64,000 nt of DNA from a virus: positions 1-64,000 of the IMG/VR virus record IMGVR_UViG_3300042894_006927, one strand, 5' to 3'. Shown here piece after piece: positions 17,279 through 47,439 of this stretch. The notes beneath the pieces were generated by a model. That model was not told where the DNA came from. It worked only from the letters and a program-made list of their open reading frames with translations, and made no database searches. Both the position numbers and the translations under genes were made by a program. Each line of letters opens with the position of its first letter. The stretch's first letter is position 1.

Positions 17279-17282
17279 AATT

Positions 17283-18786: not shown

Positions 18787-18803
18787 AAAATCAAAATTTT
18801 GTT

Positions 18804-19962: not shown

Positions 19963-22929
19963 ATGAACTCATACGGACTTGTATTTGGTGGAGAAAAAAC
20001 AAGCCACGATAGCGGAAACGATATTGCCTACCAAGTTGTAGCAGGAAATAATTACTCCCAAGTTGTAATTGAGGGCGATGAATATATCCTGCCAAAAGAA
20101 GCAATGCAATCCGAAAAAGTTTACGACTTTGTGGATAAATTGCCTATTGAAATGCTTGACGAAATTAAGCGTTCCGAGAATGTATTTATTCAGTTTCCAA
20201 ATTTACGGCAGGGGGATATGGTTGTCTGCAAAAATTCGGTTCGGAATGATGATTTGCACACAATTAAAGGAACTGCGAAAGAAATTGGAAACTACCTTCA
20301 AGGGCTTTCAGCGTGTAGAATGTATGCGAAAGGCGGTTACATTAGCGGTGAACTTGCCAACGGGGGCGGGGTAGAAGATGAAAGTCAGTTGCGTTTGCTT
20401 ACCCCTATGCCACCGACAAAACTTGGCAAAACGGGCATTGATTCTCTAACTGAAATCATTGGAAAAGATAAAATGCGACCTGCCTTTTCGGGGGCGTTAT
20501 ATGCAGGTAAGGGAAGAATAGTTGCCACCGATGCAAACATATTGGTTGTTCTTGAAAACCAAAACTATCCGAAATCACTTGATGGAACAATTAAATCTTT
20601 GTGGAATAAAGTGCCACAAGAAAGGTTGGTTGGTATTCCTTATCCAAATTGGGAAGCGGTTGTACCAAGCCAACAAAATTTTCAGACAAAAGAACTATCA
20701 ATAGACGATGTTCTCGCCTATGCGTATGGGGGGTTTTTAGAGGGCAAAAAAATTATTAACGAAAAGGATTTTAACAAATACCAAAAAGAAGTATTCAAAT
20801 ACATTTTACGATTAAACATTGGGAACATTGAAATTGGCGTTGATTCGTTGTTGCTTACCCGTATTTTAAGGACTTTAAAGGCGAATGATGTTCGGAAGAT
20901 TGTTTTTCATATTGGGCAAACAAATCAAAGACCAATCAAAATAACAACCGACAATAAACACTATGGGTTAATAATGCCCGTAATGATTGCTGATAAAGTT
21001 GAAGATTTAGGAGAAGCCATTTATGTTAGTCAACAAATTTTTTACCCTATTTCGGAGAAGGATTTTAGGGCAATGTCAAAAAAATATGGCGAATACTTAA
21101 CCGAATTTTCAAAAATGGTTGGGGGTGAAAGAATGGCAGAAGGTGGAGAAATTACTATGAATATGCCGCTTCTGATTCGTGTTTTGGAATTGGCTAAAGA
21201 GGATGTGAAAGAGGACAAAGAAATTCATTTTATAGCAGAAAGGTTGCAGTCAATCGCAGACAAAGGCACTTTGACTATGGAAGATTACGATTACATTTCG
21301 GGGTTGGAAAGTAACGACAAAATTCAAAAACTGATTGCCGAAAATGATAGTAACGATTCCGATTTAAGGTTTGAGCAGGGCGGGGAAGTAGAGGATTTAA
21401 TAAGCAGAGGAATTGTTGACTTGAAAATGTACGATACAATCCCAAAACACGCAAATGAATATGGTTTGCAATGCCTTAATCCATTGTTTGTTCAAACTAT
21501 TTGCGTAAGTGAACCAAAAAGATTAAAAGGTTTAGGCACAAAAGTATTATCGTACATTGAAAAATACGCAATCGAAAATGGACACGATTTAATTTTTGGT
21601 CATATCATTCAAGAAGCAAAATTTACTAAAGACGAAAGACAAACATTTTTTTGTGATATTGATATGATTAAGAATTGGTTGCACTCAAACGGATATGCAA
21701 TCAGGGATGAAAATAATGATTTTCATAAATTCATTCAAAGTAATAAGTTAGAAGGTGGAGGTAGCGTTTTGTTAGCCCCAAACGGAAAGCCGAGCAATTT
21801 AACCCCCGAACAATGGCATTTAGTCCGAACCCACGAATTTAAAGCGTGGTTTGGGGATTGGGAAGCCCTTGAAAACGCTAAATTAAGGGATAAGGGAATG
21901 GATGAAGTTACCTTGAAAAATTTGGCATCGGATGTTTCAAAGGTTGTTGATGAGAATGGTGAGCCGTTGGTGGTTTATCACGGAGGTTATATTGATTTTA
22001 ATGTTTTTGATATTGATAAGACAGCAAATAAGAGATTTTATTTTACCCCAAGTAAAGAGTACGCTGAATTTAGAGGGCAAGTTTCTAAAGCGTATTTCTT
22101 AAAGATTATAGAATTATATTATGTAGATTGGCAACAAGGGAGAACTTTACAAAAACCAAAAGGTAAATTTTCGGGTTATGCTAATTTACTAAATGGTATA
22201 AAAAATCTTAATGAAATAATTGTTTTTGAACCTACCCAAATCAAACTTGCCGATGGTAGCAACACTACATTTGATTCCAATAACCCCGATATAAGGTTTG
22301 AACAAGGCGGGATGTTAGAAAATGGTGTTGGAGGGGAGTACGATAGTTTATATGCTTTTCTTTATTGGCACAAAGAGTACATCCCAATTTTCGCTAAAAA
22401 ATACGGCATAAACGAATCGGAGTGGGAAGATTTTGTTAGTGGGGAATTGGGATATGATAAAGAAATTTTGCAAAACATTTTGGGGGATGGGTACAAACTA
22501 TTTTACGATGAAGAAAAAGATATGTTTGAGGTTTCAGAGAAAAGGAAGCGAAAAAAATCGGGCAACTATAAAATAGAGAAAGTTTCAAGTAAAAATGAAA
22601 AACAAGTTTTGAGAATAATTAACGAGGAAATAGTTACCGAGTTAAAACCAAGATTAGCAGTTTTTTGGAATGATATGGTTGTGGGTGGTTCTACTTATGA
22701 ATTTAAAAATGGCACATATAAATTTGACTTGGCTATTTTACCCGAATATCAAGGGCTTGGAATTTCAAAAGGTTTGATTCAGTCAATTATTGACGATGCA
22801 AAAATGCTAAAAGCAAAAAGTTTGGAAGCAGAGGTTGTAAACAAAAAGTTGCTTTCATACCTTCAATCAATAGGGTTTTCGGCATACAAATCTCAAGGTC
22901 AAGATTTTGCTTTCTTATCTCTAAAATAA
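19963..22929 (+). CDS. mosaic polyvalent protein / putative polyprotein (beta-clamp-like, GNAT, ADP-ribosyltransferase, GNAT)
   Basis: D..RP...IVATD...YPNW..VVP...LIMPV (clamp-like); FKAWFGDWE...VVDENGEPLVVYHG...FYFT...EIIVFEPTQIK (ART-PolyVal-like); RLKGLG and YQGLGIS acetyl-CoA loops; six xxxGG linkers. Confidence 0.8.
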   Translation: MNSYGLVFGGEKTSHDSGNDIAYQVVAGNNYSQVVIEGDEYILPKEAMQSEKVYDFVDKLPIEMLDEIKRSENVFIQFPNLRQGDMVVCKNSVRNDDLHTIKGTAKEIGNYLQGLSACRMYAKGGYISGELANGGGVEDESQLRLLTPMPPTKLGKTGIDSLTEIIGKDKMRPAFSGALYAGKGRIVATDANILVVLENQNYPKSLDGTIKSLWNKVPQERLVGIPYPNWEAVVPSQQNFQTKELSIDDVLAYAYGGFLEGKKIINEKDFNKYQKEVFKYILRLNIGNIEIGVDSLLLTRILRTLKANDVRKIVFHIGQTNQRPIKITTDNKHYGLIMPVMIADKVEDLGEAIYVSQQIFYPISEKDFRAMSKKYGEYLTEFSKMVGGERMAEGGEITMNMPLLIRVLELAKEDVKEDKEIHFIAERLQSIADKGTLTMEDYDYISGLESNDKIQKLIAENDSNDSDLRFEQGGEVEDLISRGIVDLKMYDTIPKHANEYGLQCLNPLFVQTICVSEPKRLKGLGTKVLSYIEKYAIENGHDLIFGHIIQEAKFTKDERQTFFCDIDMIKNWLHSNGYAIRDENNDFHKFIQSNKLEGGGSVLLAPNGKPSNLTPEQWHLVRTHEFKAWFGDWEALENAKLRDKGMDEVTLKNLASDVSKVVDENGEPLVVYHGGYIDFNVFDIDKTANKRFYFTPSKEYAEFRGQVSKAYFLKIIELYYVDWQQGRTLQKPKGKFSGYANLLNGIKNLNEIIVFEPTQIKLADGSNTTFDSNNPDIRFEQGGMLENGVGGEYDSLYAFLYWHKEYIPIFAKKYGINESEWEDFVSGELGYDKEILQNILGDGYKLFYDEEKDMFEVSEKRKRKKSGNYKIEKVSSKNEKQVLRIINEEIVTELKPRLAVFWNDMVVGGSTYEFKNGTYKFDLAILPEYQGLGISKGLIQSIIDDAKMLKAKSLEAEVVNKKLLSYLQSIGFSAYKSQGQDFAFLSLK

Positions 22930-22933
22930 AACA

Positions 22934-24460
22934 ATGCAAGTTTTTGAATTAACATTTTACCGAGTTGCAATACAAGGGAATGATTATTCTGAAATTATTT
23001 ATGAAGGCATAAATTTCGATTATGCGAAAATGGAATACGATTCGGTTAATATATCGGATTTCCAAGACGATTTTGGCGGTGTGGTTGAACTTGAAAAATT
23101 TGATAGGTTGTATGAGTATATTTACGATTTAGAGGATTTAGAGGATTTCCCATTTTTAAAACATTATGCCGACAATTCCTTATTTAAGGAAATAGATGAA
23201 ACCGAAATTGAAACACTTTTTCAGAGAAGGGTTGACTACATAAACCAACAAAGTGATGAACTATTGAGCAGGGTTCAACAACACTATTTTCAAATTTATG
23301 GCGATTACAAATACAATAACATTCCCGTTACTAATGGTTTGCCCGAAGATGATGATGATTTTATTGAATTTGGTTGTATTCAATTAAGGTTGGCAGACCA
23401 TTCCGAAAACCTACAAAACGTAGATAGGTTTGGCGTGTGCGATTATTACATTTCAGTAGTGATTGCAGATAAAAATGCAACAAAAGAGCAATTTTTTTCA
23501 AGTAAATTTGAAAGGCGAAAAAATGAAGTTGAATTGTACTTTGATTCAGATTCAAATTTCGATGAAATTATTGATGAAATAGAAGATAGAATTGAAAATG
23601 CAAGAGAACTTATTATGCCTAAATACGAGCAAAATAACCAAATGAAAATGGGGGGCAAATTAAATCCTTCAAAAACTCCCGCACCAATTAAAGAACGGGT
23701 TTATGGAAGCAAAATAAACAAGCCCGAATCTTCGGCATCGTTAAGGTCTGCTTCTGCAATAAAACTATCTTCCGAAAACATTTCAACGCTGAATAAAAAG
23801 GTATTGGAATTTAAGTCAAAATACATTAACCGAAACAAGAGAATGACACTTAATGCCCTAAAAGCGGTAATGCGTAGGGGTATGGGTGCTTATTCTTCAA
23901 CACACCGACCAACAATTTCGGGTGGCAAACCAAATTCAAGGGTTGCTTGGGGATTAGCAAGGGTAAATGCCTTTTTGTTCAAAGCAGAAAATGGCAGACC
24001 AAAAAACCCAAAATATGTTCAAGATGATGATTTATTGCGTGAATTGGGATATAAGTTTGCTATGCAAATGGGCGGTGGTGTTTATCTTCCCGAATTGTAC
24101 GATTTTGATGAAAGCGAATTAAAAAAAGGCGGGGAAATTTCCCCCGAAAAGTTTAAGATGCCAAACAAAGAGGTTTTGGAATATGGGGATTTTTTGAAAA
24201 AGAATCACCCGAAAGTGTGGAAGGCGGGGGGAAACATTTTCGGAAACCAAGCATTTGAGAACTTGAAGCGGGTAAGCAATAGGGGTTATTGGCTTGAAAG
24301 TGAAAGGTGGATGTATGAAAAATGGCAATCATTTGTAAAACGGCATCAACATAATCACCTTCTTGCAGGGATTATCGCCAATGTTAAGTGGGCTTCTTGG
24401 GGAAATATCGGAAAAGCAAAAGCGAAATCGGTAATTGAAAATGCTTTTTCCGATAATTAA
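22934..24460 (+). CDS. mosaic protein / putative polyprotein with three GG linkers
   Basis: acidic N-terminal module (QLRLADH), basic RRGMGAY..THRP...WGLARVNAFL module and WKAGGNI.GN module, separated by MKMGG, MQMGG and LKKGG. Confidence 0.7.
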   Translation: MQVFELTFYRVAIQGNDYSEIIYEGINFDYAKMEYDSVNISDFQDDFGGVVELEKFDRLYEYIYDLEDLEDFPFLKHYADNSLFKEIDETEIETLFQRRVDYINQQSDELLSRVQQHYFQIYGDYKYNNIPVTNGLPEDDDDFIEFGCIQLRLADHSENLQNVDRFGVCDYYISVVIADKNATKEQFFSSKFERRKNEVELYFDSDSNFDEIIDEIEDRIENARELIMPKYEQNNQMKMGGKLNPSKTPAPIKERVYGSKINKPESSASLRSASAIKLSSENISTLNKKVLEFKSKYINRNKRMTLNALKAVMRRGMGAYSSTHRPTISGGKPNSRVAWGLARVNAFLFKAENGRPKNPKYVQDDDLLRELGYKFAMQMGGGVYLPELYDFDESELKKGGEISPEKFKMPNKEVLEYGDFLKKNHPKVWKAGGNIFGNQAFENLKRVSNRGYWLESERWMYEKWQSFVKRHQHNHLLAGIIANVKWASWGNIGKAKAKSVIENAFSDN

Positions 24461-24494
24461 AATTGTTTACTATCTTCGTAAAAATCAATTTAAA

Positions 24495-24986: not shown

Positions 24987-24987
24987 T

Positions 24988-27900
24988 ATGGCTGACGAAC
25001 AAAACATAAACGAGGAAGGAAACGCCCAAAATCCAAATTCTGCACCCGAAGTTGGAAATGACCCAAAGCCAAATGTTGAGGGGGATTTAGCGGCAGATAT
25101 TTTAAGTACATCGGAAAGTTTAGACGACACCGAAAGCGAGGATTTTGATTTTCAAGATTCTTCTCAAAAACTTTATCCGTATAAGTCGGCAAGTAATAAT
25201 CCGATAAAAGTGGGCGGGGCTTTTATCCCTTTAACGCTTACTGCTGAAACGACAACTGCTTTAAATAAAATGAAGGAAGCGGTTGGCGACATTGATGCCT
25301 ATATCGTTGAAAAACTCGGATATGACACGAAAACTGATGTTTGGCGTAGTTTCGCTTCCGAACAAATAGATGCCATTGCCTTGCAGATTTTTTCTTATGA
25401 AACCGATGGCTCTGCAATTATTTTGGGCGATATGGCGGGAACGGGAAAAGGAAGGGTTTGTGCGGGAATTTGTCGTTATGCGTATTTGCAGGGGCTTATG
25501 CCACTTTTTATTACTGAAAAAGCAAACCTATTTTCTGACTTTTACCGAGATTTAAACGACATTGGTGGATTTCCTAAACTAAACCACCCCGTAGCGGGTA
25601 ATTTGCCCATTCCTTTGATTTTAAATGCGGGTTCAAAAGAAAAGATTGTAAATAAGGACAATTCAAGAATAAAGCCATCATCAAAAGCGGGTTCAAATGA
25701 TATTTATGAGCCGAGAAAAAATATAGCGATGAGGTATGATGAAGTGCCGTTGTTATTTACCGCACAAAAGCAAGAAATACTATCTCGTTTTTACAAAAAA
25801 AACGAACTGCCCCGAAACTATCAGTTAATGGTTGCGACTTATTCACAATTTCAAGGAAAAGGAAGCGATTTAAGGGAGAAATTTGTCAAGAATAATGCAG
25901 ATAAAATTTTTGTTATTTTAGATGAAAGCCACAACGCAGCAGGGGAATCTTCGGTTGGCAGATTTTTTCAAGAAATTTTGCCAATAGTTAATGGTGCTAT
26001 GTTTTCGTCAGCAACCTACTCAAAAAGGGTTTCAAACTTAAAAATATATGCCCTGCGAAACGCTATGAGGCAGTTGGGTTCGATAAATTATATTTCACAA
26101 GTTCTTGATAACGGCAGAGATAGATTAAATGAATACATTGCTACGGGTTTGGCAGAAGCAGGACATTTATTAAGAAGGGAAAGAAGTTTTGGAGATTGTC
26201 AGATAGACACGAAATTAGTTCAGAAAAGTGAGGAAGAAAGGATTTTTGAAGAATACGACAATGCCGTTAGGGGCTTCATTCAATTAAGGGATTTTTTGAA
26301 AAGTGATATTTACCAAAATGCCGTTGCTTCTTTAATTCAAGAAGTAATAGATAATTACAATTCGGAAAACAATACTTATATTTCAATAGCACCCGAATAT
26401 GATAAAAATGCTCACGGAACGAGGGCAATGTATAATCAAAGATATACGGGGTTTTACACTCAATATGAAACATTTGGAATTGTAGGCAAAAACCATTTCA
26501 ATTATATTGAGCAGTTATTGTTTAGCGTAAAAGCGGAATCCGTAGCAAAAATAGCAGTTGAAGAATTGCAAAGGAATCAGCCCGATGCCGATAGGGATGG
26601 TATTATTGCCAAAACAACTGACCCAATTCAACGACCAAAAAACTATACATTAGGTGCAACGAAACCAATCATTGCGGTTAAAAACACTCTTGAATCAATT
26701 TTTAAAAAGGTTGGAATTACGGAGGGCAAAATAGTGGATAGAGGGGATTTTGGTATTTACTTTCAGTATTTATTGGCATCAATTTATTCGGGAAGCGTAA
26801 CCTTTAAAAAAATAGGTGGTAATAAACCCGAAACAATAACCTTTAAAGACCTTGAAATTAAAGTAACCCCCGATTCCACTTTAGATAGAGAACTCAAACG
26901 GGTAACTGAAATTCTTTTGGGATTAAAGTTTACTGCACCGCTTTCCCCTATTGACACAATAATTCAGAATGTTGAAAGTGAGAGGGCTAATCAGCCAACG
27001 CCATTTTCTGCTATCGGGGATAATTTTACCTGCCGTGAAATTTCGGGAAGGAAAACAATGTTCATAAAGTTGCCCGATGGTAGATTTCAATTAGTTAAAA
27101 ACTCAAAAACCGAAAACAATGTTGCTTCGGCATTTCAAGCGTTTAACGATGGCAGAACTGACTTTTTAATCATAAATAAATCGGGTTCTACGGGTGCTTC
27201 CGCACACTCAAGCCCACAATTTAAAGACACAAGACCGAGAACGCTTTTAATCCACCAAGTAGAGTTAAATGTTCAAACCGAAGTGCAAAAAAGGGGAAGG
27301 GTAAATAGAACGGGGCAGTTGTGGTTTCCGAGATACATTTACATCATTTCGCCTATTCCTTCCGAAACAAGGCGTATGATTATGCTTATGCGTAAGTTGA
27401 AAACGCTTGATGCCCTTTCTTCGGGCAATCAAAAGCAATCAGAAGCAATGACAACAATTCAAAGTTCCGCAGGAGTTAAAATTCGGGATTTTATCAATAA
27501 GTACGGGTGGAAGGCAGCAAGACCGATTTATTTAGAAATGCTTGGAAGGAATAGCGTAAACAATGATTCCAACGCTATTATATTAAACAACGACCAAATT
27601 GCTTCATTAGAAAAATATAGTGAAGAAGATGAAAATGGAGAGGATGCTATGCAGTTGCTTATGCGATATATGGAATTGCAATTTACAAGTGTCCAAATTG
27701 AATTTTACAATAAATCGAATACCGCATATTTTGAATTGTATCAAAAAATGGATGAAAACGGCACTTGGGATTTGGACACCGAGTATCGTGATTTTCAAAG
27801 CGTAACAAGAAATAGGTTTGAACTTGTACCGCCAAAAGGAGAGGGCGTTTTTAATCAAGGCGTATATGTTGAGGATTGTGCGATTACTGCCGATGATAAG

Positions 27901-29793: not shown

Positions 29794-29794
29794 A

Positions 29795-31126: not shown

Positions 31127-31129
31127 ATT

Positions 31130-32431
31130 ATGAGGTTTGACGCTGAAAATTTTAACATAAACACAAATTTTGGTGCTTCTTGTAATCAAAGCAAGGATGT
31201 CTATGTTGGCATATTTGAAAACACCCAAGAACTCATAAATGAAATTTTGGGCGGTTATGATATTCAAGACCTTTCAAATAGGCGTTTACCAAACGGGCTT
31301 AATGGCGATTTTTGGAGGCAATTTATTGAGAGGGATGTAAATAATAGCATAAACTTTTATGGTGGCACTCAAAACGATGATTTTGAATCTTTGTTTTTGA
31401 GAAAAAATTGGGGGCGAATGGATGAATTTAACAACATTTATGTAAATAGGATTCAGCCAATAATGCAACAAGTTTATAGGGATTTTTTAAGTCAAGGAAA
31501 AATAGAAAATCCCGAATTTGAGTACAACGATAGAGAACTTGGAAATTTTGCTTTTGAACGGGCATCAGTTGAGTTGTTGCCAATTTTTGAGTATTACGAT
31601 GATAAGTTGGAGGTATCAGTTCCGCAAAAAAATGTTGAGGATAAAGGCGAAAAAACCTTCGATAAAACAAATGGCAACGAGGTTTTTTGGATTCCAAAAT
31701 ATGAGGACAAAAAAAAATCAAAACGGGCTTGTAAATTAAAAAAAGAGGGCAAACCAATATCTGAAATAATGTCAACGGAGGGGCTTCAACCCCCAAAATA
31801 TACAAGTTCAGTAAAAAAATCTTTTGTTTACAAAAAGGAAAAGCCAAAACTTAAAAAAGCGGTAAGGATTTTGCTTGACTTGTCTATTATTGGGCGTAGA
31901 ACTCCCGAACAAGCAATTTGGCGTGGATATGGTGCGGTTGGAATAATAAAATTTTTAGAAAGCGTTGGTTATGCCACATCGCTAATAGGTGTTGAAAGTA
32001 CCGCATACGGAAGCGGAACAATAAGCCACGACCTTATTTGTGCCGTATTTTTAAAAAATTTTGGACAACCTTTGGACACATCAGAGTTGCTTTATGGGGC
32101 ATCGGATGTTTCACTTGTCAGAGTAAAGTATTGGCTTTGGAATATGTTGGCGAGTAGTATGCTTAATAATAATGTTGGTGGAAGTCATGGGGGGATTATG
32201 TCGCATAATTGCGTTGTTTTCAATACATTCCGTTCAGTTGGTGCAAGATACGATAGGTTGTGGCAAGAGAATATAAATTCCTTTTCTAACCGAAATACGG
32301 GAAATTTCCTTTACATTACTTTTGGGGATTGTTGGTCGGAAGATGAAATGATTGCCGAAATAAGAAGAAAAATAACCGATGTTTTAAACATAAACAACGA
32401 AGCGATACAATTTGCCCAAGCAAACCCCTAA
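31130..32431 (+). CDS. probable vWA-like partner of the AAA+ ATPase
   Basis: immediately follows a MoxR-type ATPase; AVRILLDLS...IWRG....I..LE..G alpha/beta pattern, MIDAS degenerate. Confidence 0.5.
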   Translation: MRFDAENFNINTNFGASCNQSKDVYVGIFENTQELINEILGGYDIQDLSNRRLPNGLNGDFWRQFIERDVNNSINFYGGTQNDDFESLFLRKNWGRMDEFNNIYVNRIQPIMQQVYRDFLSQGKIENPEFEYNDRELGNFAFERASVELLPIFEYYDDKLEVSVPQKNVEDKGEKTFDKTNGNEVFWIPKYEDKKKSKRACKLKKEGKPISEIMSTEGLQPPKYTSSVKKSFVYKKEKPKLKKAVRILLDLSIIGRRTPEQAIWRGYGAVGIIKFLESVGYATSLIGVESTAYGSGTISHDLICAVFLKNFGQPLDTSELLYGASDVSLVRVKYWLWNMLASSMLNNNVGGSHGGIMSHNCVVFNTFRSVGARYDRLWQENINSFSNRNTGNFLYITFGDCWSEDEMIAEIRRKITDVLNINNEAIQFAQANP

Positions 32432-32440
32432 TTTTACGAT

Positions 32441-32701
32441 ATGGAAATTGCTGAACTGAAAAATAAAATAATGTTTGACTTGCTTTCCCGAAACAAGGAA
32501 AATATGGTTTTTTTATCGCCTAAACTTTGCTATTGTTTGGACTACCCCGACAAAATAATAGTTGAGTGCCAACAAGTTGAAATTACTCAAAGAAATAACG
32601 GCAGACCAAGAACAAAATTCTTTACCTATGATATTAGTGGGAATTACATTTCAGAAGAAATGCTATCAAAAGACGAAATAAATTCCTTGATTGACTTATG
32701 A
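32441..32701 (+). CDS. hypothetical protein
   Basis: 86-aa ORF with ATGA coupling to the next gene. Confidence 0.6.
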   Translation: MEIAELKNKIMFDLLSRNKENMVFLSPKLCYCLDYPDKIIVECQQVEITQRNNGRPRTKFFTYDISGNYISEEMLSKDEINSLIDL

Positions 32702-34854
32702 TTGATAAGCAAAAACTAATGAGTTTGACACAATTTGGTGTTTCGGAGAATGATATTAAAAGGTCGTTCCCCGAAACCTCTTATTTGTTTATTGCTTACG
32801 ATGATGAAGGCGTTGTCCAATCAGTACAAAACATTCTCAATATAAATGAAACTTTTTTAATTGAAAAAATAAAGAGAGAAAGGGTAGCCAAACATTCAAT
32901 ACTGAAATATCCCTTTAATCCGCTAAATACGGCATTTTACAATTACTGCCTTTATATTTCAAGCCCTTCGGATAGAAGTGCTTTTGACAATATGTATATT
33001 GGTTGGGTAAATGAATACTTAACAAAAAAAGAAAACGAAACAAAATTTGGAAATTCAGTTTATGAAATTGAGTTTTCGGGTTTAGATTCAGACATTCAAA
33101 AGTTTTGTTACGAATTTGTCTTGGATAACGAAAAAGGGGGAATGGTGCTTGACATTCTCTATTTGCTTCAAGCAAAATCAAAACTAATGGGTATGCCTTT
33201 GTTTGGAAAGATTATTTCAAAGGCGGTAACATCAGTTTATTTTGAGGGAATCGGTCTGCTTCCCGAATATGAAATCAGCAATATGCACTACCTAATTGGG
33301 GGTTTTCAATCAAAAGTTGCCGACAAAGAAAAATTTGATGAAGCAAAAAAATTGGCAAGGCAGGGTATGGATATTGATGTTATTGCTTCAAAAACGGGTT
33401 GGATTTTAAATGCACCCGATGGTAAGCCCCGATTTGTGATTCCAAATGAAAAAGCAAATTGGAAAAAGGAAGCCCAACTTTATAGCGTAACAAATTCCGA
33501 AATGATTTTGGCGTTAAAAGACCCAAGCGATAGAGTAAAAAATGATTTCGGTTTTGGATTTTCAAATAGTAGGCATCTATTAGAGTTTCCCAAACTCGGA
33601 GAAATTTTAGATTTTCCCGAATTATTCAACGCATATCCGCACTTTGAAAACATACCCATTTGCATTGGCGTTTCAAGAAGTTTAAGTGGCGGTACAAGAG
33701 GTGCTTTTTCGGACACCCCCGTAAAAAACATTTCTTCTATTCGTGAGGGGGATTGGAACGATGTTAGCAATTCAGTTTTAAGTACGCTTCTGCACGAAAT
33801 ACAACACGCAATCCAAGAGGAAGAAGGGTTTTCGGGAGGCGGGAACACTTTTTTTTCAAGGTTGGCTATGGCATCGGGGGTTGATTTTTATAGAAAATAT
33901 AGAATCATACTGAACGACTTTGAAAGTGTGTTCAAAGAAAGGGCTTTAAAAGAAAATGCTAAACAAGAGTTCCAAAGTGCTTTTCTTGATAATCCTAATT
34001 TCAGCGAAATACACGATTATTTTAAGGGATTCTCAACAAGCGAATTGGGGCAATTTGCATCAATGTTTTCTTTTTGTTTCTTAATTATTTCATTGAGAAA
34101 GAACGAGCAAGAATTTATGAATTTTGCGAATACTGCGAGGGAGTTTATGTATGCTTTTAGCGGTATGGAAGAAACCCCCATATTTGCAAAATTGGTTAAT
34201 TCTACGAAAGAAGTAAATGCTAAATATGACAATTTAAGAAGGGATTGGATTTCAAGGGGCTATGATGATAACGACTTAAATGCCATAAGTTATGCCTACT
34301 ATTTATCTTTTGGCGGGGAGATTGAAAGCCGATATGTTCAGCAAAGTTTTTTCCAAAGAGTACCCGTAGAACTACAAAAAAAATTGAGGTTTTTGTCGTA
34401 TGAAAACACGATTAACAACCTTTACATTTTTGACAAATCTTCTACTGCGGTAAAAAGCCAAAATGCCTTTGAAACTGCAAAAGGCAAAGGGGGCATATTA
34501 CACCTTACAAAATCAGAAAACGCTTTTATTTTGCTTCACGAAGTAGGACACGCAGTTTATGATTTACTTATTAAGGCAAATTCATCAAATGAAATTAAGT
34601 TTGTAAACGCCTTTGAAAACGAATCGGAAATTGTAAAAGAAAGGGGTTATTCCGAATTTTGTGCTAATTCTTTTGTTTCTTACTTGAAAAGGAAAAAAAT
34701 TGAAGAACCCTTGACCAAGTATTTTAGATTGGAAGATAATATAGGGGTTGAACTTAATGCCCTTTTTGAAAAGTTTTTAAATTACGAGGTTGAAGATGAT
34801 TATTCGGAAAAAGTAGAATTGTATCTTCAATATCTAAAAGAAATGCAAAAATGA
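32698..34854 (+). CDS. polyvalent-protein-type zincin metallopeptidase (LPD23-like) with two HExxH motifs
   Basis: TGW...PDGKPRF...ELF.AYP...TLLHEIQHAIQEEEGFSGGG...GEIESR; second motif LLHEVGH...E..AN.F. Confidence 0.75.
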   Translation: MIDKQKLMSLTQFGVSENDIKRSFPETSYLFIAYDDEGVVQSVQNILNINETFLIEKIKRERVAKHSILKYPFNPLNTAFYNYCLYISSPSDRSAFDNMYIGWVNEYLTKKENETKFGNSVYEIEFSGLDSDIQKFCYEFVLDNEKGGMVLDILYLLQAKSKLMGMPLFGKIISKAVTSVYFEGIGLLPEYEISNMHYLIGGFQSKVADKEKFDEAKKLARQGMDIDVIASKTGWILNAPDGKPRFVIPNEKANWKKEAQLYSVTNSEMILALKDPSDRVKNDFGFGFSNSRHLLEFPKLGEILDFPELFNAYPHFENIPICIGVSRSLSGGTRGAFSDTPVKNISSIREGDWNDVSNSVLSTLLHEIQHAIQEEEGFSGGGNTFFSRLAMASGVDFYRKYRIILNDFESVFKERALKENAKQEFQSAFLDNPNFSEIHDYFKGFSTSELGQFASMFSFCFLIISLRKNEQEFMNFANTAREFMYAFSGMEETPIFAKLVNSTKEVNAKYDNLRRDWISRGYDDNDLNAISYAYYLSFGGEIESRYVQQSFFQRVPVELQKKLRFLSYENTINNLYIFDKSSTAVKSQNAFETAKGKGGILHLTKSENAFILLHEVGHAVYDLLIKANSSNEIKFVNAFENESEIVKERGYSEFCANSFVSYLKRKKIEEPLTKYFRLEDNIGVELNALFEKFLNYEVEDDYSEKVELYLQYLKEMQK

Positions 34855-36965
34855 GTGCCGAATTAAACGAAAACGAGTTCGATTTATCGCAAAAAGCCGT
34901 TGGTATTTCTATCGGTGGTTCGGGTAGTGGTCAAACTCAAATCGGTGGTAGTGGTGGAAGCGGAAGCGGTGGTAGTGGTGGAAGCGGAAGCGGTGGTAGT
35001 GGTGGAAGCGGAAGCGGTGGAAATGGTGGAAGCGGAAGCGGTGGTAGTGGTGGAAGCGGAAGCGGTGGTAGTGGTGGAAGCGGAAGCGGTGGAAATGGTG
35101 GAGAAGGTGGAAGCGGTGGTAGTGGTGGAAGCGGAAGCGGTGGTAGTGGTGGAAGCGGAAGCGGTGGTAGTGGTGGAAGCGGAAGCGGAAGCGGTGGTAG
35201 TGGTGGAAGCGGAAGCGGTGGAAATGGTGGCGAAAATGGAAATGGTGGAAATGGTGGCGAAAATGCAAATGGTGGGGATGAAGAAGATGGCGAAGAAAAC
35301 CCTGCCGAAGAACAAGAGGAAGGGGATAGCGAAGATGAACAAAATTCGCAAAACGATAGCAGATTAGGGCAACGATGCGTAATAATTTATCCCAAAGAAT
35401 TTGCGGGGCGGTTGGGTAATATAAAAAGGGTTATTTTTAAGGGTAAATCCGACACGCCAATAGAACCGAGAAACATAGATGGGTACACTCTTACATATCC
35501 ATCAGAAACCGAATTTACTTTGTTTGAGGTAGAATATATCAATGAAAATGGGAAGTTAGAAGAAGGTTCTTTTATGGACATTGATGTTCTATTTGAAAAT
35601 CAAGAATTTTTTGTAGTCGTTGACGGGGGTCAAGTATTAGAAGCGGTTTGTAGCGGTTTTGTTGAATCTGATAGAAACCCATATAAATTTTTTATTAAAA
35701 CGGAAAATGGGCAAGTTTTTCCTGCGTTTAGGTGCTTTGTTCAACCCCAAGAAAAAAATGAAAACGAAAACGATGCCGAAGATGGGGAAAGCGATGAAGA
35801 TGAAGATACCCAAGATAATGAGCAAGAAAATTCTATTGTAGGAAAAGAATTTGTTTTATTACGGGATAGTTTTACACACAAATCGGGGGAAAGGGGAACT
35901 ATTCTTTCGTCATTAGGCGAGAGAATGCTTGAGGGCACGGAAGAATATGTTGTCAATGGTCATCGGATTTTTTACCCAATAGGAACATATTATAGTGCTT
36001 ATCGTGTCGCAATAGGAGATAGCAACTTTATTATCAACGACTTTGATTTTGTATTTGTAGGCGAAGAAGTAAGTTTTGTGATAAGTGATGCAAACGAATA
36101 TGGTTTACAAGAGGCAATCTATAATGGTTATAGTGTATTTGGATTTATTGAAGATTCACCACAAAATTTTTTGTTAGCATTAGATAGCGATAACCCATCG
36201 TTGATTAAAACCGATATGTGTTTTGTTTCGTTAGAAACGATTGCGATTAGAAACCAAAGGCAAGATAGCCAAGATGATGATGATGATGATGATGATGAGC
36301 AAACACCCGAAAACGAAGAAAATGTTTTTGTGGCATCCTTATTTTGGAATTATGTACTTAATGAGAGGAAATTAAGCGGGGATGTTTTTACGGCTGATAT
36401 AGACGAAAATTTTAGAGAGGTTACAAACGAGTTGTCTTTCCTTCGTAGTTTTCCCGCAAGTTTGTATGATGAATCAGTAATTTATAGCAAAGAAACGAAA
36501 GAATACGGGTATCTTACAACAAACGAATTTGATGTAAACACAATTCAAACCATTGATTATTTTGCAGTTACCAATTTCAATTTGTTTGAATCGGTTATTT
36601 ACCGAAATAATCCAAAAGAATTAAATTTTACCTATGTTGCCCTAAAGTATGTTTTGGACAATTTAAAAAGAAAAATGTTTTTTGTGCCAACATATCAAGT
36701 AAATGAGGAATCGTTCTATATTATGGTTTACGAAAAGAGTGAGGATGAAATTATTGTAGTTACCAATTACGAGAAATTTAGCGTTAGAAAAAACGGGTTG
36801 GGCGATTATTTACACTTAATTGTTCATTTAATGAATTGGGCATACCTTAATAGGTTTGAACAAAATTTGTTTTTAGATTTCAAAAAACAAACCCAAAATT
36901 TACTCAAGCCAAACATTTTTTACGCAAAAATTTTTGAAGATTATTGCAAGGCACTTACAATCTAA
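34851..36965 (+). CDS. large acidic protein with a Gly/Ser-rich N-terminal linker
   Basis: GGSGGSGS repeats, then D/E tracts separating beta-rich domains. Confidence 0.75.
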   Translation: MSAELNENEFDLSQKAVGISIGGSGSGQTQIGGSGGSGSGGSGGSGSGGSGGSGSGGNGGSGSGGSGGSGSGGSGGSGSGGNGGEGGSGGSGGSGSGGSGGSGSGGSGGSGSGSGGSGGSGSGGNGGENGNGGNGGENANGGDEEDGEENPAEEQEEGDSEDEQNSQNDSRLGQRCVIIYPKEFAGRLGNIKRVIFKGKSDTPIEPRNIDGYTLTYPSETEFTLFEVEYINENGKLEEGSFMDIDVLFENQEFFVVVDGGQVLEAVCSGFVESDRNPYKFFIKTENGQVFPAFRCFVQPQEKNENENDAEDGESDEDEDTQDNEQENSIVGKEFVLLRDSFTHKSGERGTILSSLGERMLEGTEEYVVNGHRIFYPIGTYYSAYRVAIGDSNFIINDFDFVFVGEEVSFVISDANEYGLQEAIYNGYSVFGFIEDSPQNFLLALDSDNPSLIKTDMCFVSLETIAIRNQRQDSQDDDDDDDDEQTPENEENVFVASLFWNYVLNERKLSGDVFTADIDENFREVTNELSFLRSFPASLYDESVIYSKETKEYGYLTTNEFDVNTIQTIDYFAVTNFNLFESVIYRNNPKELNFTYVALKYVLDNLKRKMFFVPTYQVNEESFYIMVYEKSEDEIIVVTNYEKFSVRKNGLGDYLHLIVHLMNWAYLNRFEQNLFLDFKKQTQNLLKPNIFYAKIFEDYCKALTI
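34944..35270 (+). repeat. 24-bp coding tandem repeat (GGTGGTAGTGGTGGAAGCGGAAGC = GGSGGSGS)
   Basis: roughly 11 near-perfect copies followed by GGNGGEN variants. Confidence 0.95.
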
Positions 36966-36986
36966 AAAAAATCTTAATTTTACATT

Positions 36987-37409: not shown

Positions 37410-37498
37410 TGAAACTCGTTTTTAGCAAAATAAAAAGGTTGCTTTCAACAACAAAACACCACATTGAACTATCAAAATCCCTAAACAAGTTTTAAGTT

Positions 37499-38881
37499 AT
37501 GACCAAGTTAGAATTACAAAACAAAATAGCCGTTTTAGAAAAAAACATTTCAAAAACGAAGAATCCTACATCGTTGGCTATATTGCAAAAAAACATTGAA
37601 GATGCACGAAAAAAACTTGCGGCACTTGAACAAGGCACTCCCGCACCCGCCCCAAATGGCGGTTCTTCTGAATTGGAAAAACTTTATGCTCAAAGGGAAA
37701 CATTAAAAAAGGGTTTAAGTAGTTCCAATCCCGTTGTTCAGAAATCAGCAAAAGCGGCACTTCCAAAAGTTGAAGCCCGTATTGCTGAATTAGAAGGGGC
37801 ATCACCCGCCCCCGCACCTGCGAAGCGTATGCCAAAATCAAAGGCAGAAAAACCCGCTAAAACAACCGCAAAAAGAGGTCGCAAACCAAAGGCAGAAACC
37901 CCCGCAGAGGAAAAACCTAAAATCAAGCGTGGTCGTAAGCCAAAAGCCGAAACCCCCGCAGAGGAAAAGCCAAAAGTCAAGCGTGGTCGTAAGCCAAAAG
38001 CCGAAGCCCCCGCAGAAATACCCGTAGCAGCCGTAAGGCGTGGTCGTAAGCCAAAAGCACCTACCGAAACCCCCGCAAAAGCCCCCGCAAAGCGTGGTCG
38101 CCCCGCCCTTCCAAAAGGTGCAAAAAGCCAAGAAGTTTCAATAGATTCTCTAACTAAATTGGCAAATGCGTTAGTTGAATTTTGCATTGAAAACGGCATA
38201 TCAAACCCAAGCGTTTCTGATTTGCAAGGAATCCTTAACCTTCTTGACAAAGGAAAGGCATTAAAATTTGCCAAAGGCGGTAAAATTTCCAAAAGCGGCA
38301 GTTATCTCTCTAAATGGCAAATCAAAGAAATTCTTACCGATGGCGGTATGAAAATAGGCTCTGATGAATTACTTTCGGGAGTTTGGTTAAAAAAAAAAGA
38401 TAGTGGTGTAGCCCAAATGCGAATGGGCGGTGAAGTTGGGTACTTCGTTATTGATGATGATATTCTTGATAGCGGAAAGTCCGTAATGCTCGGCAATCGT
38501 AGAATTTCTGCAAAAAACAAAAAATTTCAAGGCGTTTTTGAAGGAAAAATGGTCGGTGGCGTAATGAAAGTTTACGACTACGATGATGAAATGTGGAAAG
38601 TAGTTAATCCCGATGAATGGCAACAAGCGTATGCCGAAGGTGGCGAGGTTGGAAGATTTCATAGGGGAAGGTCGGTTATGGTTGCAGAAGAAAATGACAA
38701 CGAAAACTACGACAATTTTAGAGGTAAAGAGTTGGTAATAACCGAAAAATTTACAAACTCTAAAGAAAACCCATATTTTGATGAAGGGCTTTCGGGTATG
38801 GCACTATATCATTTAATGGAGAGAGAAACGGGGAAAAAAATTCCTTTTGCCCTTTATGATTATGAATTGGAAGCATACTAA
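37499..38881 (+). CDS. histone-like AT-hook-repeat protein with GG-delimited C-terminal modules
   Basis: five (K/R)RGR(K/P) repeats; FAKGG, MRMGG and YAEGG linkers. Confidence 0.75.
   Translation: MTKLELQNKIAVLEKNISKTKNPTSLAILQKNIEDARKKLAALEQGTPAPAPNGGSSELEKLYAQRETLKKGLSSSNPVVQKSAKAALPKVEARIAELEGASPAPAPAKRMPKSKAEKPAKTTAKRGRKPKAETPAEEKPKIKRGRKPKAETPAEEKPKVKRGRKPKAEAPAEIPVAAVRRGRKPKAPTETPAKAPAKRGRPALPKGAKSQEVSIDSLTKLANALVEFCIENGISNPSVSDLQGILNLLDKGKALKFAKGGKISKSGSYLSKWQIKEILTDGGMKIGSDELLSGVWLKKKDSGVAQMRMGGEVGYFVIDDDILDSGKSVMLGNRRISAKNKKFQGVFEGKMVGGVMKVYDYDDEMWKVVNPDEWQQAYAEGGEVGRFHRGRSVMVAEENDNENYDNFRGKELVITEKFTNSKENPYFDEGLSGMALYHLMERETGKKIPFALYDYELEAY
37865..38110 (+). repeat. ~54-bp coding repeat (KRGRKPKAETPAEEKPKI-like)
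   Basis: CGTGGTCGTAAGCCAAAAGC...CCCCGCA units repeated. Confidence 0.85.
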
Positions 38882-38883
38882 TT

Positions 38884-41316
38884 ATGCAACACCAAGATTC
38901 ATACATTGTCGTAAAGGAATTTACTGACAACGGAAAAAAAACGAGAGAGGTTATTGCAACGGGAGTAACCAAGCAAGGCTTTATTGATGCCTACACCGAA
39001 AAAGGTTGTGTAATGAGAGGGGGCGAAAACCCCCATTTTGAGGACATTTATTCGGGTATAATTTACAAGTTGGAAAAAGAATTTGAGCAAGGCGGTCAAA
39101 TTGATAGGGAAAGGGATATTCAGATTGCCAAAACAATTTTGATGCAAATGGGTGGCTCAAACCGACTGCAAATGTTTACGGGGGCATACAATTTTGTGGC
39201 AGTACCCTATGGGGTTTCATTTCGGATTAAAAACCGAAGCGTAAACTATGTGAAAATTGTGCTGAACGCAATGGACACTTACGATATTGAATTTGGGCGA
39301 ATTAGTGGGGTAAACTACAAGATTGTAAAAGAATTAAGCGGAATCTACAACGACCAATTAGTTGAAATTTTTACCCGTTATACGGGAATGGTTTTGCGTT
39401 TAAGAAAAGGCGGTGCAATTCAAGGGGAAGAAAATGCCGAAATGGTTATGAATCAAAACCTACAAATTCGCCACCACACCGAAGAATTAGAAGAAATCCT
39501 AAAATCGGGAAAGGAAGTTCCTGCTTGGGTTGTTTCAAAAGTTAGCAGGGCGGCAGATAGTATGTCAGATGCCACACACTACCTTGAAGGAACACCCGAT
39601 AAAATGGAAAGGGGTGGGAATACAAGAATTGTAGATATTTCAAAACTGAAAACTTATGTTTTGACTTATATTCCCGTTTTTGACATTAAACGGGCAATGC
39701 AAATAAAGCAAAAAGCGGTTTACGCAGAAAGCGAGGAAGATGCCATTGCCCAACTTCCAAGAACGGCAAAAGTAATTTCAATAAAAGTTACTTCGGGCGG
39801 TGGTCGTGGCATACCCCAACGACAAAGGGGGCGTGGAGAATCACAATCTCAAAAAATTCGGAAAGAAATAAAAGCGTTAAAGGAAACATTGCCCTTTTTG
39901 GAGGGTAAAGACAAAAAACAAATTGAAGATGAAATCAAAAACCTAAATGATACATTGGATGAGATGGATACATTGGATGAAATGAGGGCGGAAGGACAAT
40001 ATGCCGAAGGCGGAGGGGTTAATAAAATGGCAATGGGCGGTGAGGTTTCCAAACAATATGAAGACATACCTAATACAACATACCAACTAAAGATTAAAGT
40101 TTATTATGACAAGGGGGGTATGAACTATTATTCGGGGGGGACAAACAAAAGAGGTTATTACCTTTCAGTTACACCCGTTCAAATTGAAAGGCAAGGAAAT
40201 AATGTGATGATTGAATCATATACGGCATTTTCGGGCATAAAAAAGTTAATTTTAGAAGTAGAAAGACAAAGCCCAAAATCGGCTGAAAAAGCAAAAGAAC
40301 TTGCCGAATCTTCAATTTCCGAATTAAAGCAGTATGTTTTAAATCAAATGATTGAAAGAGGCGAAATACCACAAGCCCTTCCTATGCCCGAACCCGAACC
40401 AATGCCCGATGAAGATGAAATAAACCCCGAAGAAATTAGGGCTGAAATCGTAGCGTTAGAGCAAGTTTTAGAAGTGTTGGAAGGAGAGGATAGGCAATCA
40501 ATCCAAGAGGAAATCGAAATACTAAAACTTGCATTGGAAGGAATGGGCAATTATGCCAAAGATGGGGATAGCATAAAAAATTGGTACACAAGCACATACC
40601 CTTCCGATGATTTGGGCGAAGAATTAAACCCCGATGCTAAATTTAGTGGATTAGAAGAAAATTTGGCAGACATTTACACTTATTTGGGTGTTGCCGATTC
40701 GGTTGTTCGTGAAAGAGTTTTTGAAAGATATTCTGAAATTTTTAATAAGCCATACGAATATATTTACGACAAGTGGGTTAAATCGGAGAAATTTGCCAAA
40801 GGTGGCGGGATTGGTGAATTGCCCCCAAAAGGAGAATTAACCAATAAAGATAATTTTCTGCTCAAATATGAAAAAAAGGGTGGCGACTACGAATTTTACA
40901 TTTACAAACCCGAAACAAAAAAAGTTAGTGGATATAATCAAGTAAAGCATATTTGCGTAAATTCAGATTGCCCACACAAAATGACTTATGAGCAATTTTT
41001 AAATTACTTGTATGCAGAATTGTATTTAGATAATATGAAATATGCCAATGGCGGTGAAATTTTTGTATGCCCCGTTGGAACTGAAATCCAAACTTTGATT
41101 TTTGACAAATCAATGTTTAACCTTCGGGAAGCAAAAGCGTGGGCAAAGAAAAACAATTTTGAAAACGCTTATGTTGATGGCAAATTAAACACTTTGCGAA
41201 TACGACAAAAAGACCCCGCTATGTTTACCGAAGATGGATTTAGAACAATTCAATTAAGGCAAGGCGTTCAAGCAGTAATTGGTTGCCCGAAGCGTAAAAT
41301 CAGCAGAAAAAAATGA
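38884..41316 (+). CDS. mosaic protein / putative polyprotein of 8-9 small modules
   Basis: linkers FEQGG, LRKGG, MERGG, YAEGG, MAMGG, YAKDG (degenerate), FAKGG and YANGG separate unrelated 60-170 aa modules. Confidence 0.75.
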   Translation: MQHQDSYIVVKEFTDNGKKTREVIATGVTKQGFIDAYTEKGCVMRGGENPHFEDIYSGIIYKLEKEFEQGGQIDRERDIQIAKTILMQMGGSNRLQMFTGAYNFVAVPYGVSFRIKNRSVNYVKIVLNAMDTYDIEFGRISGVNYKIVKELSGIYNDQLVEIFTRYTGMVLRLRKGGAIQGEENAEMVMNQNLQIRHHTEELEEILKSGKEVPAWVVSKVSRAADSMSDATHYLEGTPDKMERGGNTRIVDISKLKTYVLTYIPVFDIKRAMQIKQKAVYAESEEDAIAQLPRTAKVISIKVTSGGGRGIPQRQRGRGESQSQKIRKEIKALKETLPFLEGKDKKQIEDEIKNLNDTLDEMDTLDEMRAEGQYAEGGGVNKMAMGGEVSKQYEDIPNTTYQLKIKVYYDKGGMNYYSGGTNKRGYYLSVTPVQIERQGNNVMIESYTAFSGIKKLILEVERQSPKSAEKAKELAESSISELKQYVLNQMIERGEIPQALPMPEPEPMPDEDEINPEEIRAEIVALEQVLEVLEGEDRQSIQEEIEILKLALEGMGNYAKDGDSIKNWYTSTYPSDDLGEELNPDAKFSGLEENLADIYTYLGVADSVVRERVFERYSEIFNKPYEYIYDKWVKSEKFAKGGGIGELPPKGELTNKDNFLLKYEKKGGDYEFYIYKPETKKVSGYNQVKHICVNSDCPHKMTYEQFLNYLYAELYLDNMKYANGGEIFVCPVGTEIQTLIFDKSMFNLREAKAWAKKNNFENAYVDGKLNTLRIRQKDPAMFTEDGFRTIQLRQGVQAVIGCPKRKISRKK

Positions 41317-41936: not shown

Positions 41937-41938
41937 TT

Positions 41939-42652: not shown

Positions 42653-42703
42653 TTTTTAATTGCTTTTTTATTTATATTTGCAATACAAATAAATTTTAAT
42701 GTT

Positions 42704-47430: not shown

Positions 47431-47439
47431 AAAAATTTT

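Follow-up and report, generated by a model that had tools for sequence, protein, structure and literature searches.

Four large genes of an uncultured ~80-kb phage encode strings of unrelated small protein modules that are joined by one short conserved peptide, Lys-[Met/Tyr/Phe]-Ala-x-Gly-Gly-x-[Ile/Val], hereafter the seam. Related phages swap modules exactly at this peptide. The seam is inferred, with moderate confidence, to be a cutting signal for a protease, though no cut has been observed. The window analysed here is a stretch of 64,000 nucleotides, positions 1 to 64,000 of the 79.8-kb IMG/VR record IMGVR_UViG_3300042894_006927, and all features given below with start and end positions lie on its + strand.

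An initial annotation of the sequence alone listed about 20 copies of a Gly-Gly linker at domain borders of four large genes, and this observation holds: every listed motif is present in the ORF named for it. The strict pattern [MFYL][AERKQ][AEKQMNRG]GG occurs 20 times in ORFs 19963-22929, 22934-24460, 37499-38881, and 38884-41316 (2,766 aa in total), but only 3 times in the remaining 22,666 aa of the record. A set of 2,000 residue shuffles of the four ORFs gives a mean of 0.52 and a maximum of 4. Two motifs are added to the list, MQMGG at residues 87-91 of ORF 38884-41316, which lies inside a folded domain, and KMVGG at residues 384-388 of ORF 19963-22929, which forms a doublet with MAEGG. 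Of the two further copies assigned to structural genes by the initial annotation, FEKGG in ORF 57469 is in register, whereas ARMGG at the end of ORF 53007 is out of register, with Ala rather than a hydrophobic residue at P5.

The first seamed protein (19963-22929, 988 aa) comprises an N-terminal module, a clamp-like module, a small module, a GNAT-like module, ART-PolyVal, and GNAT. Pfam profiles match ART-PolyVal (PF18760, E 1.5e-12) at residues 663-705 and GNAT at residues 897-978, and PHROG profiles match residues 153-340 and 595-780. A phmmer search of PDB sequences with the clamp-like module gives no match, so the clamp assignment rests only on phrog_6615 and on homologue P0047, which carries PF02767. 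The protein has six strict seams. YAKGG (20323-20337) and LANGG (20353-20367) form a doublet (20323-20367), of which LANGG is lost in relatives P0006 and P0009. KMVGG-ER-MAEGG (21112-21147) is a second doublet, and relatives P0002, P0003, and P0008 carry two extra modules (about 123 aa) exactly between its two seams, indicating that it is either the scar of a seam-to-seam module deletion or an insertion site. FEQGG (21370-21384) is preceded by SNDSDLR, a remnant resembling the ART tail. LEGGG (21748-21762) lies immediately before the start of the ART-PolyVal module (SVLLAPNGKPSN), and a second FEQGG (22297-22311) lies at the end of the ART-PolyVal tail (NPDIRFEQGG). The tblastn hits of the ART module span residues 595-784, from seam to seam. 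The conserved ART tail ends in [FY]xxGG at 204 non-redundant sites. The long motif NPDIR[FY]xxGG is not the linker itself, but the C-terminal tail of the ART-PolyVal domain that happens to end in a seam.

The second protein (22934-24460, 508 aa) has the seams MKMGG (23642-23656), MQMGG (24062-24076), and LKKGG (24119-24133). A DUF5824-like module lies between the first two. This module (residues 242-381) is 51-58% identical in four family genomes, where it is flanked by seams and is N-terminal in family genome G004 and C-terminal in family genome G003. Its natural N- and C-termini coincide with seam edges. The third protein (37499-38881, 460 aa) has the seams FAKGG (38267-38281), MRMGG (38417-38431), and YAEGG (38630-38644), and a phrog_34111 match starts at residue 385, right after YAEGG. 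A search of the ESM Atlas with the N-terminal part of this protein gives nothing.

The fourth protein (38884-41316, 810 aa) has border seams FEQGG (39082-39096), LRKGG (39400-39414), MERGG (39604-39618), YAEGG (40000-40014), MAMGG (40027-40041), FAKGG (40792-40806), and YANGG (41041-41055), as well as the degenerate YAKDG (40552-40566, residues 557-561). The additional MQMGG (39142-39156) is intradomain. Homology blocks of thousands of metagenomic relatives start and stop at the seams. In particular, the ends of BLAST alignments to 150 representative homologues cluster at residues 71, 177, 245, 377/386, 641, and 724. In the subject proteins, 101-123 of 206 alignment ends lie within 10 aa of a seam, against about 40 by chance. 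An AlphaFold model, folded from a filtered alignment of homologues, shows about 9 separate modules and places 7 of 8 seams plus the degenerate one in sharp dips of confidence. The dips, with pLDDT below 50, lie at residues 68-73, 174-184, 230-297, 371-400, 555-560, 638-645, and 709-733. In close relatives, the breakpoints of module insertions and deletions fall exactly after residue 245, and in such seam-to-seam indels the sequences are identical up to and including Gly-Gly and diverge straight after it.

The same cluster encodes an unseamed giant protein (24988-29793, 1601 aa) with an Sbno-type helicase (Pfam AAA_34, Helicase_C_4, and ResIII; PF13871/PF13872) and no strict seam, and a protein with the large polyvalent protein-associated domain LPD23 (32698-34854, PF18838). 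The four seamed ORFs contain several unrelated modules in one polypeptide, and together with their neighbours carry signature domains of the polyvalent proteins of phages and conjugative elements (PMC5512222).

The seam is sequence-specific. Positions that were not used to pick the sites still carry information: P4 is Ala in 59% of sites, P6 is Lys or Arg in 47%, and P3 is Lys, Asp, or Glu, giving the consensus (K/R)-[M/Y/F]-A-[K/D/E]-G-G-x-[I/V/T]. The Gly codons differ from seam to seam and between genomes, indicating that the conservation is at the protein level and that the seam is not a DNA-level recombination signal. Nor is it a pause site resembling a Shine-Dalgarno sequence, because the first Gly codon avoids GGA. 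Met at P5 does not mark an internal start codon, because Phe and Tyr are equally common there. In addition, the seam is not part of a repeated domain, because the modules of one 1,828-aa protein are mutually unrelated.

The seam marks a virus family of 65-85 kb. Family-wide counts of the 7-mer are 23-62 per genome, against 4.5-7.9 expected, and are concentrated in 2-5 ORFs per genome, with up to 26 seams in one 2,093-aa protein. The median module in the family is about 80 aa, with a range of roughly 50-250 aa. In contrast, crAss-like and Bacteroides phage proteins with ART-PolyVal domains show no enrichment, nor does a 98-kb non-family record. In family genomes G000, G003, G004, G005, and G012 the seamed genes lie directly upstream of a morphogenesis block. 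This block holds a small packaging-type P-loop ATPase (44955-45869) with Zot, terminase, and HerA-like hits, homologues of which occur in 8 of 17 IMG/VR records that carry the ART tail plus GG. Other searches found nothing, namely a megablast search of a phage collection, single-protein scans of IMG/VR, and alignment-based scans of viral and genome contigs with the module at residues 636-726. Terminase_6N and Phage_capsid profiles hit none of ten records, but these include non-family records that were presumed, not shown, to be tailed, so the result says nothing about whether the family has tails.

To identify a candidate protease, we searched the record for peptidases. Profiles of Peptidase_C5, C48, and C57 (PF00770, PF02902, and PF03290) give no match at E up to 10 in the 79.8-kb record, and PF02902 is absent from family genomes G003, G004, G010, and G012, two of which are 90% and 94% complete, although records may be incomplete and very divergent folds would be missed. 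Profiles of the S77 and S78 prohead proteases (PF03420 and PF04586), the only prohead protease families searched, give no match at E up to 1 in G000, G003, G004, G010, and G012. Among the 68 ORFs scanned with Pfam, the only peptidase hit is a weak one, PF18894 on ORF 50995-51792 (E 0.003, below cut-off). This ORF encodes a predicted beta-sandwich (residues 1-96) followed by a predicted M48/minigluzincin-like zincin domain with HELSH...E..EAD. Residues H184, E185, H188, E198, and D202, which comprise the HExxH motif and a downstream Glu as the third metal ligand, are invariant in 9 homologues down to 18% identity. The AlphaFold model has a pLDDT of 89. Residues 107-265 align to BepA (BepA/YfgC) with a Z-score of 8.2 over 119 residues, to abylysin with 7.2, and to selecase with 6.5. 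These scores are moderate, and no Pfam M48 hit was obtained, though M48 leads the matches. Unlike these enzymes, the viral protein carries the fused beta-sandwich, has no membrane segment, and lies in a morphogenesis block. The zincin and the ATPase are the only non-cargo proteins that BLAST finds in all four other family genomes compared. No peptidase domain is embedded in the seamed ORFs, and no fused form of the zincin was found among longer proteins, which is weak evidence.

The interpretation in the initial annotation, that the phage builds bead-on-a-string polyproteins that are packaged and clipped by an adenain-, ASFV pS273R-, or Ulp1-type protease, is thus only partly supported. Its proposed gain or loss of modules exactly at linkers, which it had put forward as a test, is borne out, as are the bead-on-a-string build of the proteins and the position of the motif at module borders, but its type of protease is not supported. 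What the sequences demonstrate is that the four ORFs are polyvalent proteins built from unrelated modules, that the seam joining them lies outside the folded modules (with the intradomain MQMGG as an exception), that it is kept by selection on the amino acids, that it is the exact point of module insertion, deletion, and exchange, and that it is characteristic of the family. Cleavage, packaging, the identity of the protease, and the proteolytic activity of the zincin are inferences. In this view, which we hold with moderate confidence, the chains would be polyproteins that are clipped into many small proteins during particle maturation or after delivery, and the best candidate enzyme is the conserved metallopeptidase-like protein. 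With a zincin, the cut could be after Gly-Gly or just before the conserved Ile/Val, because thermolysin-like zincins favour a hydrophobic P1' residue. That the products would be virion cargo is inferred from gene position and from the ART-PolyVal/Alt analogy. In support, Iyer, Burroughs, Anand, de Souza, and Aravind (2017) proposed that zincin-like peptidases process polyvalent proteins (PMC5512222). However, no cleavage product, virion proteome, or N-terminus has been seen, and the zincin could serve another purpose, such as entry, lysis, or attack on host proteins. M48-type and minigluzincin enzymes are not known to be specific for such a site, and cutting after Gly-Gly is classically a cysteine-protease trait. 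At least one in-register motif, MQMGG at residues 87-91, is buried in a folded domain and could not be a site. The link between zincin and seams rests on a handful of genomes that share ancestry and is therefore co-inheritance, not independent co-occurrence. In addition, a few seams (2-3 per protein) occur in ART proteins of records that lack both the zincin and the ATPase.

A possible but less favoured alternative is that the seam is an uncleaved hinge, a standard connector that lets unrelated modules fold and act independently on one chain and whose uniformity would make module exchange by recombination viable. The proteins would then work, and perhaps travel, as intact multi-enzyme chains, as reported for some polyvalent proteins. 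The indel breakpoints, the low-confidence, probably flexible segments around the seams, and twelve seam doublets spaced exactly 6 residues apart, which look like recombination scars, are consistent with this view. So is the citation of N4 vRNAP, ArdC, and TraC1 as polyvalent proteins that are transferred full-length (PMC5512222), and no protease has been tied to the motif. However, flexible linkers are normally low-complexity and not sequence-conserved, whereas here Lys/Arg, aromatic/Met, Ala, and Ile/Val are conserved around Gly-Gly across unrelated modules and across genomes whose ATPases are only 25-33% identical. With differing codons, the seam is too short and too variable in DNA to drive homologous recombination by itself, and chains of up to 26 unrelated modules of about 80 aa are hard to explain as a single working protein.

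The reading of the initial annotation, a clan-CE cysteine protease that is encoded in an unsampled part of the genome, too divergent to detect, or supplied by the host, is unlikely. Gly-Gly is at the heart of the motif, ASFV and adenovirus are precedents for GG-X processing (PMC10308890), and CheckV rates the record only 46% complete. Against it stand the negative profile searches and the register, as the hydrophobic residue is at P5 with Ala mostly at P4, and not at P4 as in the (M/L/I)-X-G-G of adenain. It is equally doubtful that the seam is bound rather than cut, either as a repeated docking peptide for loading the chains into the particle or threading them through a delivery channel, or as a decoy for a host system that recognises Gly-Gly tails, such as ubiquitin-like conjugation or JAB peptidases. 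The sequence-specific conservation does imply a trans-acting reader, one seam reads LRLRKGG, which resembles the ubiquitin tail, and a RadC-type JAB domain sits directly before a seam in homologue P0189. However, twenty or more docking sites per chain have no known precedent, profiles of Prok-JAB and RadC find no such domain in this record, and the seam is dispensable for modules that occur as separate genes.

The proteins resemble known polyvalent proteins in their long chains of unrelated enzyme and binding domains next to virion genes, for which delivery with the DNA and an analogy to RNA-virus polyproteins have also been proposed (PMC5512222). That paper describes no junction motif, and the words 'linker', 'glycine', and 'boundaries' do not occur in it. 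Here, a defined 8-residue seam marks nearly every junction, the modules are much smaller and more numerous, and the candidate zincin is a separate gene rather than an embedded domain. Literature searches for the NPDIRF/NPDIRY tail and for phage Gly-Gly polyproteins found no description of the seam. In ASFV, pp220 and pp62 are cut by pS273R, and in adenovirus adenain cuts at (M/L/I)XGG-X; these large dsDNA viruses release core and cargo proteins at Gly-Gly sites with a hydrophobic residue a few positions upstream, but the register here is shifted by one residue and the modules are enzymes and effectors, not core-shell proteins. In tailed phages, packaged effector proteins carry short protease motifs and are cut during maturation (PMC10052503, PMC7411985), as for T4 gp21 acting on Alt, itself an ADP-ribosyltransferase, and the internal proteins, the phiKZ and SPN3US ejection proteins, and the P1 Dar proteins. 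Those sites end in Glu or have other signatures and are cut by S77- or S80-type serine proteases, and the substrates are mostly single proteins with one or a few sites, not strings of 10-26 modules.

A more far-reaching possibility, which we regard as tentative, is that a so far undescribed family of 65-85-kb dsDNA phages uses a true polyprotein strategy. The family has a small A32/FtsK-like packaging ATPase and a structural block rich in membrane proteins, and one member has inverted terminal repeats. Dozens of unrelated effector or core modules of about 80 aa would be translated as a few long chains and released by a virion-associated M48-like metallopeptidase at the code (K/R)-[MYF]-A-x-G-G-x-[IVT]. 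The same seam would serve as a plug-and-play cassette border, so that any module dropped between two seams becomes deliverable cargo.

Polyvalent proteins are thought to be the anti-defence and takeover kits that phages deliver with their DNA. A short, sharply defined seam would give a readable grammar for splitting thousands of unannotated metagenomic giant proteins into functional units, a directly testable polyprotein-processing hypothesis for a DNA phage with a named substrate motif and a named candidate protease, and a natural cassette system that explains rapid module turnover between close relatives. If cleavage is confirmed, this would be a bacterial-virus counterpart to ASFV and adenovirus GG-X processing that uses a different class of protease.

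The initial annotation reported Gly-Gly linker motifs at domain borders of four large genes. Translation of the four ORFs (19963-22929, 22934-24460, 37499-38881, and 38884-41316) shows every motif that it listed for them, so the observation holds. In the full 79,789-bp IMG/VR record, of which the window is the first 64 kb, the strict pattern [MFYL][AERKQ][AEKQMNRG]GG occurs 20 times in the four ORFs (2,766 aa) and 3 times in the other 108 ORFs (22,666 aa). In comparison, 2,000 residue shuffles of the four ORFs give a mean of 0.52 and never more than 4. The underlying codons differ from site to site (GGC-GGT, GGG-GGC, GGT-GGA, and others), and the preferred Gly codon differs between related genomes. 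Therefore, it is the peptide that is conserved, not a DNA repeat. In the present record (G000) and three related IMG/VR records (G003, G004, and G012), the first Gly codon of the seam avoids GGA (3-12% against about 30% elsewhere) and prefers GGC or GGT, which may avoid Shine-Dalgarno-like AGGAGG strings after the Lys, Asp, or Glu codon.

ORF 19963-22929 matches the Pfam ART-PolyVal (PF18760) and GNAT families. The neighboring 1,601-aa ORF has an Sbno-type helicase, and ORF 32698-34854 has LPD23, a large polyvalent protein-associated domain. The cluster therefore belongs to the polyvalent proteins of Iyer et al. 2017 (PMC5512222). That paper proposes processing by zincin-like peptidases and draws an analogy to RNA-virus polyproteins, but it mentions no junction motif, and full-text literature searches found no description of the seam. 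Between the helicase giant and the LPD23 protein, an AAA_5/MoxR-like ATPase is followed by a DUF7192 protein (29795-32431), and the two look like a CobS/CobT-like pair. A 704-aa ORF (34851-36965) without a family match carries an almost pure (Gly-Gly-Ser / Gly-Ser) repeat of about 120 residues (residues 22-141). Immediately upstream of the cargo cluster is a run of at least three family-2 glycosyltransferases together with ORFs of no known family (13533-19933), which is syntenic in the metagenome locus L004.

The motif marks module borders. A library-wide HMMER search with ORF 38884-41316 found 6,664 relatives, and the matched stretches fall into blocks at about residues 65/80-180, 172-246, 372/381-490, 553/562-643, 636-726, and 719-806. 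The starts and ends of BLAST alignments pile up at seam positions 71, 177, 245, 377/386, 641, and 724. In the subject proteins, the same alignment ends lie within 10 residues of a seam in 101-123 of 206 cases, against about 40 by chance, and at a protein terminus in 36-38 cases, against about 5. An AlphaFold2 model of this ORF (mean pLDDT 62.6) shows confident modules separated by dips below pLDDT 50 at residues 68-73, 174-184, 230-297, 371-400, 555-560, 638-645, and 709-733, and these dips hold seven of the eight strict seams and the degenerate YAKDG. The eighth, MQMGG at residues 87-91, lies between two helices of a confident domain and is probably not a seam. In ORF 19963-22929, the clamp-like PHROG match (residues 153-340), the ART match (595-784), and the GNAT match (897-978) each lie between seams. 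In addition, small stand-alone phage proteins homologous to one module end at residue 173, just before LRKGG.

In the ART homologues, a long consensus, ...QIKLADG[ST]NTTFD..NPDIR[FY]xxGG, appears. This is the conserved C-terminal tail of the ART-PolyVal domain, which ends in a seam. The general seam is shorter. To determine its consensus, we read it from 1,379 Gly-Gly sites in distant homologues and from 140 seams in five family genomes. P6 is Lys or Arg (47%), P5 is Met, Tyr, or Phe, P4 is Ala (36-59%), P3 is Lys, Asp, or Glu, P2-P1 is Gly-Gly, and P2' is Ile, Val, or Thr. Positions that were not used to pick the sites carry clear information, which argues for a specific reader rather than a mere flexible hinge.

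Close relatives, 76-94% identical in shared parts, differ by whole modules. ORF 19963-22929 reads ...KMVGG-ER-MAEGG..., and its relatives P0002, P0003, and P0008 carry two extra modules (about 123 aa) exactly between these two seams. ORF 38884-41316 and its relatives P0122, P0124, and P0125 are about 92-94% identical up to and including ...DKM[EA]RGG and differ completely from the next residue on. In P0122, the next module is the one that follows MAMGG in the query, so this is a seam-to-seam deletion. Seam doublets spaced exactly six residues apart (12 cases in the family) fit this history. Tandem doublets such as MADGG-M-MAKGG and YADGG-M-MARGG are common in relatives (metagenome locus L008 at 10245-12005; G003 at 39847-43668 and 47169-52655), always with this spacing. 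The DUF5824-like module of ORF 22934-24460 is seam-flanked in three genomes. It is N-terminal in G004, where it begins where a seam would end, and C-terminal in G003, where it stops before the seam would begin.

The seam is a family trait. A DNA-pattern scan of IMG/VR for the ART tail plus GG returned 21 loci. Of 17 records tested, 8 carry a homologue of the small packaging ATPase (44955-45869), and six of these, all 64 kb or longer, also carry a homologue of ORF 50995-51792, a predicted zincin. Records G003, G004, G005, G007, G010, and G012 form a family of 65-85-kb viruses that share this ATPase (about 280-300 aa), the predicted zincin 6-9 kb downstream of it, and a cluster of seamed cargo genes. 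Of the family records, G010 has inverted terminal repeats, and two are rated 90-94% complete at 80-84 kb. No terminase, HK97 capsid, or prohead-protease profile matched, but the same profiles also missed the non-family records used as controls, so these searches leave the particle type open. About ten consecutive small ORFs at 54306-58251 have one N-terminal membrane helix each, which is unusual for a tailed-phage structural module, and one of them (57469-57963) has an in-register FEKGG seam right after its membrane helix.

We compared seam 7-mers in the present record, these six family records, and one non-family record of 98 kb (G002), each taken whole. The observed counts, with those expected from shuffles in parentheses, are 33 (6.9) in G000, 62 (7.5) in G003, 46 (7.9) in G004, 25 (4.5) in G005, 24 (5.2) in G007, 23 (5.8) in G010, and 41 (6.2) in G012, but 10 (4.7) in the non-family G002. 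The seams are concentrated in 2-5 ORFs per genome, which lie directly upstream of the ATPase block in G000, G003, G004, G005, and G012. The richest chains have 23 seams in 1,828 aa (G003) and 26 in 2,093 aa (G004). The modules of the G003 chain are mutually unrelated, apart from one pair, and the median module in the family is 80 aa. Syntenic metagenome relatives also carry seams, whereas ART-PolyVal giants of a Bacteroides phage and of a crAss-like phage show no enrichment.

Profiles for adenain (C5), Ulp1 (C48), I7L (C57), Prok-JAB, and RadC find nothing in the record, which may be incomplete, and C48, S78, and S77 profiles find nothing in five family genomes. JAB peptidases cut after Gly-Gly in ubiquitin-like systems, and in P0189, a homologue of the module at residues 636-726 of ORF 38884-41316, a RadC-type JAB domain (motif HNHPSG) is followed directly by a YAKGG seam. 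Pfam scans of 68 ORFs found no peptidase other than the peptidase-like ORF 50995-51792, which gives a weak PF18894 hit. Residues H184, E185, H188, E198, and D202 are invariant in nine homologues down to 18% identity. The predicted structure is confident (pLDDT 89) and shows a beta-sandwich (residues 1-96) followed by a helical, putatively catalytic domain, which aligns with the M48 protease BepA (Z 8.2) and with the minigluzincins abylysin (Z 7.2) and selecase (Z 6.5). M48 leads also come from the ESM Atlas and from BFVD. In a BLAST comparison of G000 with four family genomes, this predicted zincin and the ATPase are the only non-cargo proteins found in all four. This supports the predicted zincin as a conserved morphogenesis-block enzyme and as the best candidate for the protease, although it remains co-inheritance, not proof. 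No fused forms were found among longer proteins, which is weak evidence. The next gene (51795-52502) encodes a Gly-rich protein with 21 Gly-Gly pairs and a weak Kazal-like hit (E 0.009, below cut-off).

Our analysis establishes that the seam is a protein-level, sequence-specific junction between independent modules, that module exchange happens exactly at the seam, that the seam is characteristic of one virus lineage, and that this lineage carries a conserved predicted zincin. That the seam is a protease signal and the chains are polyproteins is an inference from sequence, about as likely as not, and the predicted zincin being the enzyme is a more tentative proposal. That the products are virion cargo is likewise inferred, from gene position and from precedents such as T4 Alt and the P1 Dar proteins. 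An uncleaved standard connector that mainly serves modular evolution is possible but less favored, whereas a cryptic or host clan-CE cysteine protease and a non-proteolytic reader are both unlikely. The interpretation in the initial annotation, that the genes encode bead-on-a-string polyproteins that are packaged and clipped, by analogy with the Gly-Gly-cutting adenain, ASFV pS273R, and Ulp1-type proteases, is only partly supported. The adenain analogy fails on two tested features: no clan-CE protease was found by the profile searches, and the hydrophobic residue is at P5 rather than P4. In the structural block, a very basic 157-aa protein with KAKSPA repeats, like histone H1 or a protamine (53007-53480), may condense DNA. 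It has IMGG near its N-terminus and ARMGG three residues from its C-terminus. Both are out of register with the seam, but the N-terminal IMGG-E, not ARMGG, fits the adenain pattern (M/L/I)XGG-X.

Polyvalent proteins and the idea that they are processed are already known. What is new is an explicit, near-universal seam code, the extreme bead-on-a-string architecture, and the tie to a particular virus family with a stand-alone, predicted M48-like peptidase.
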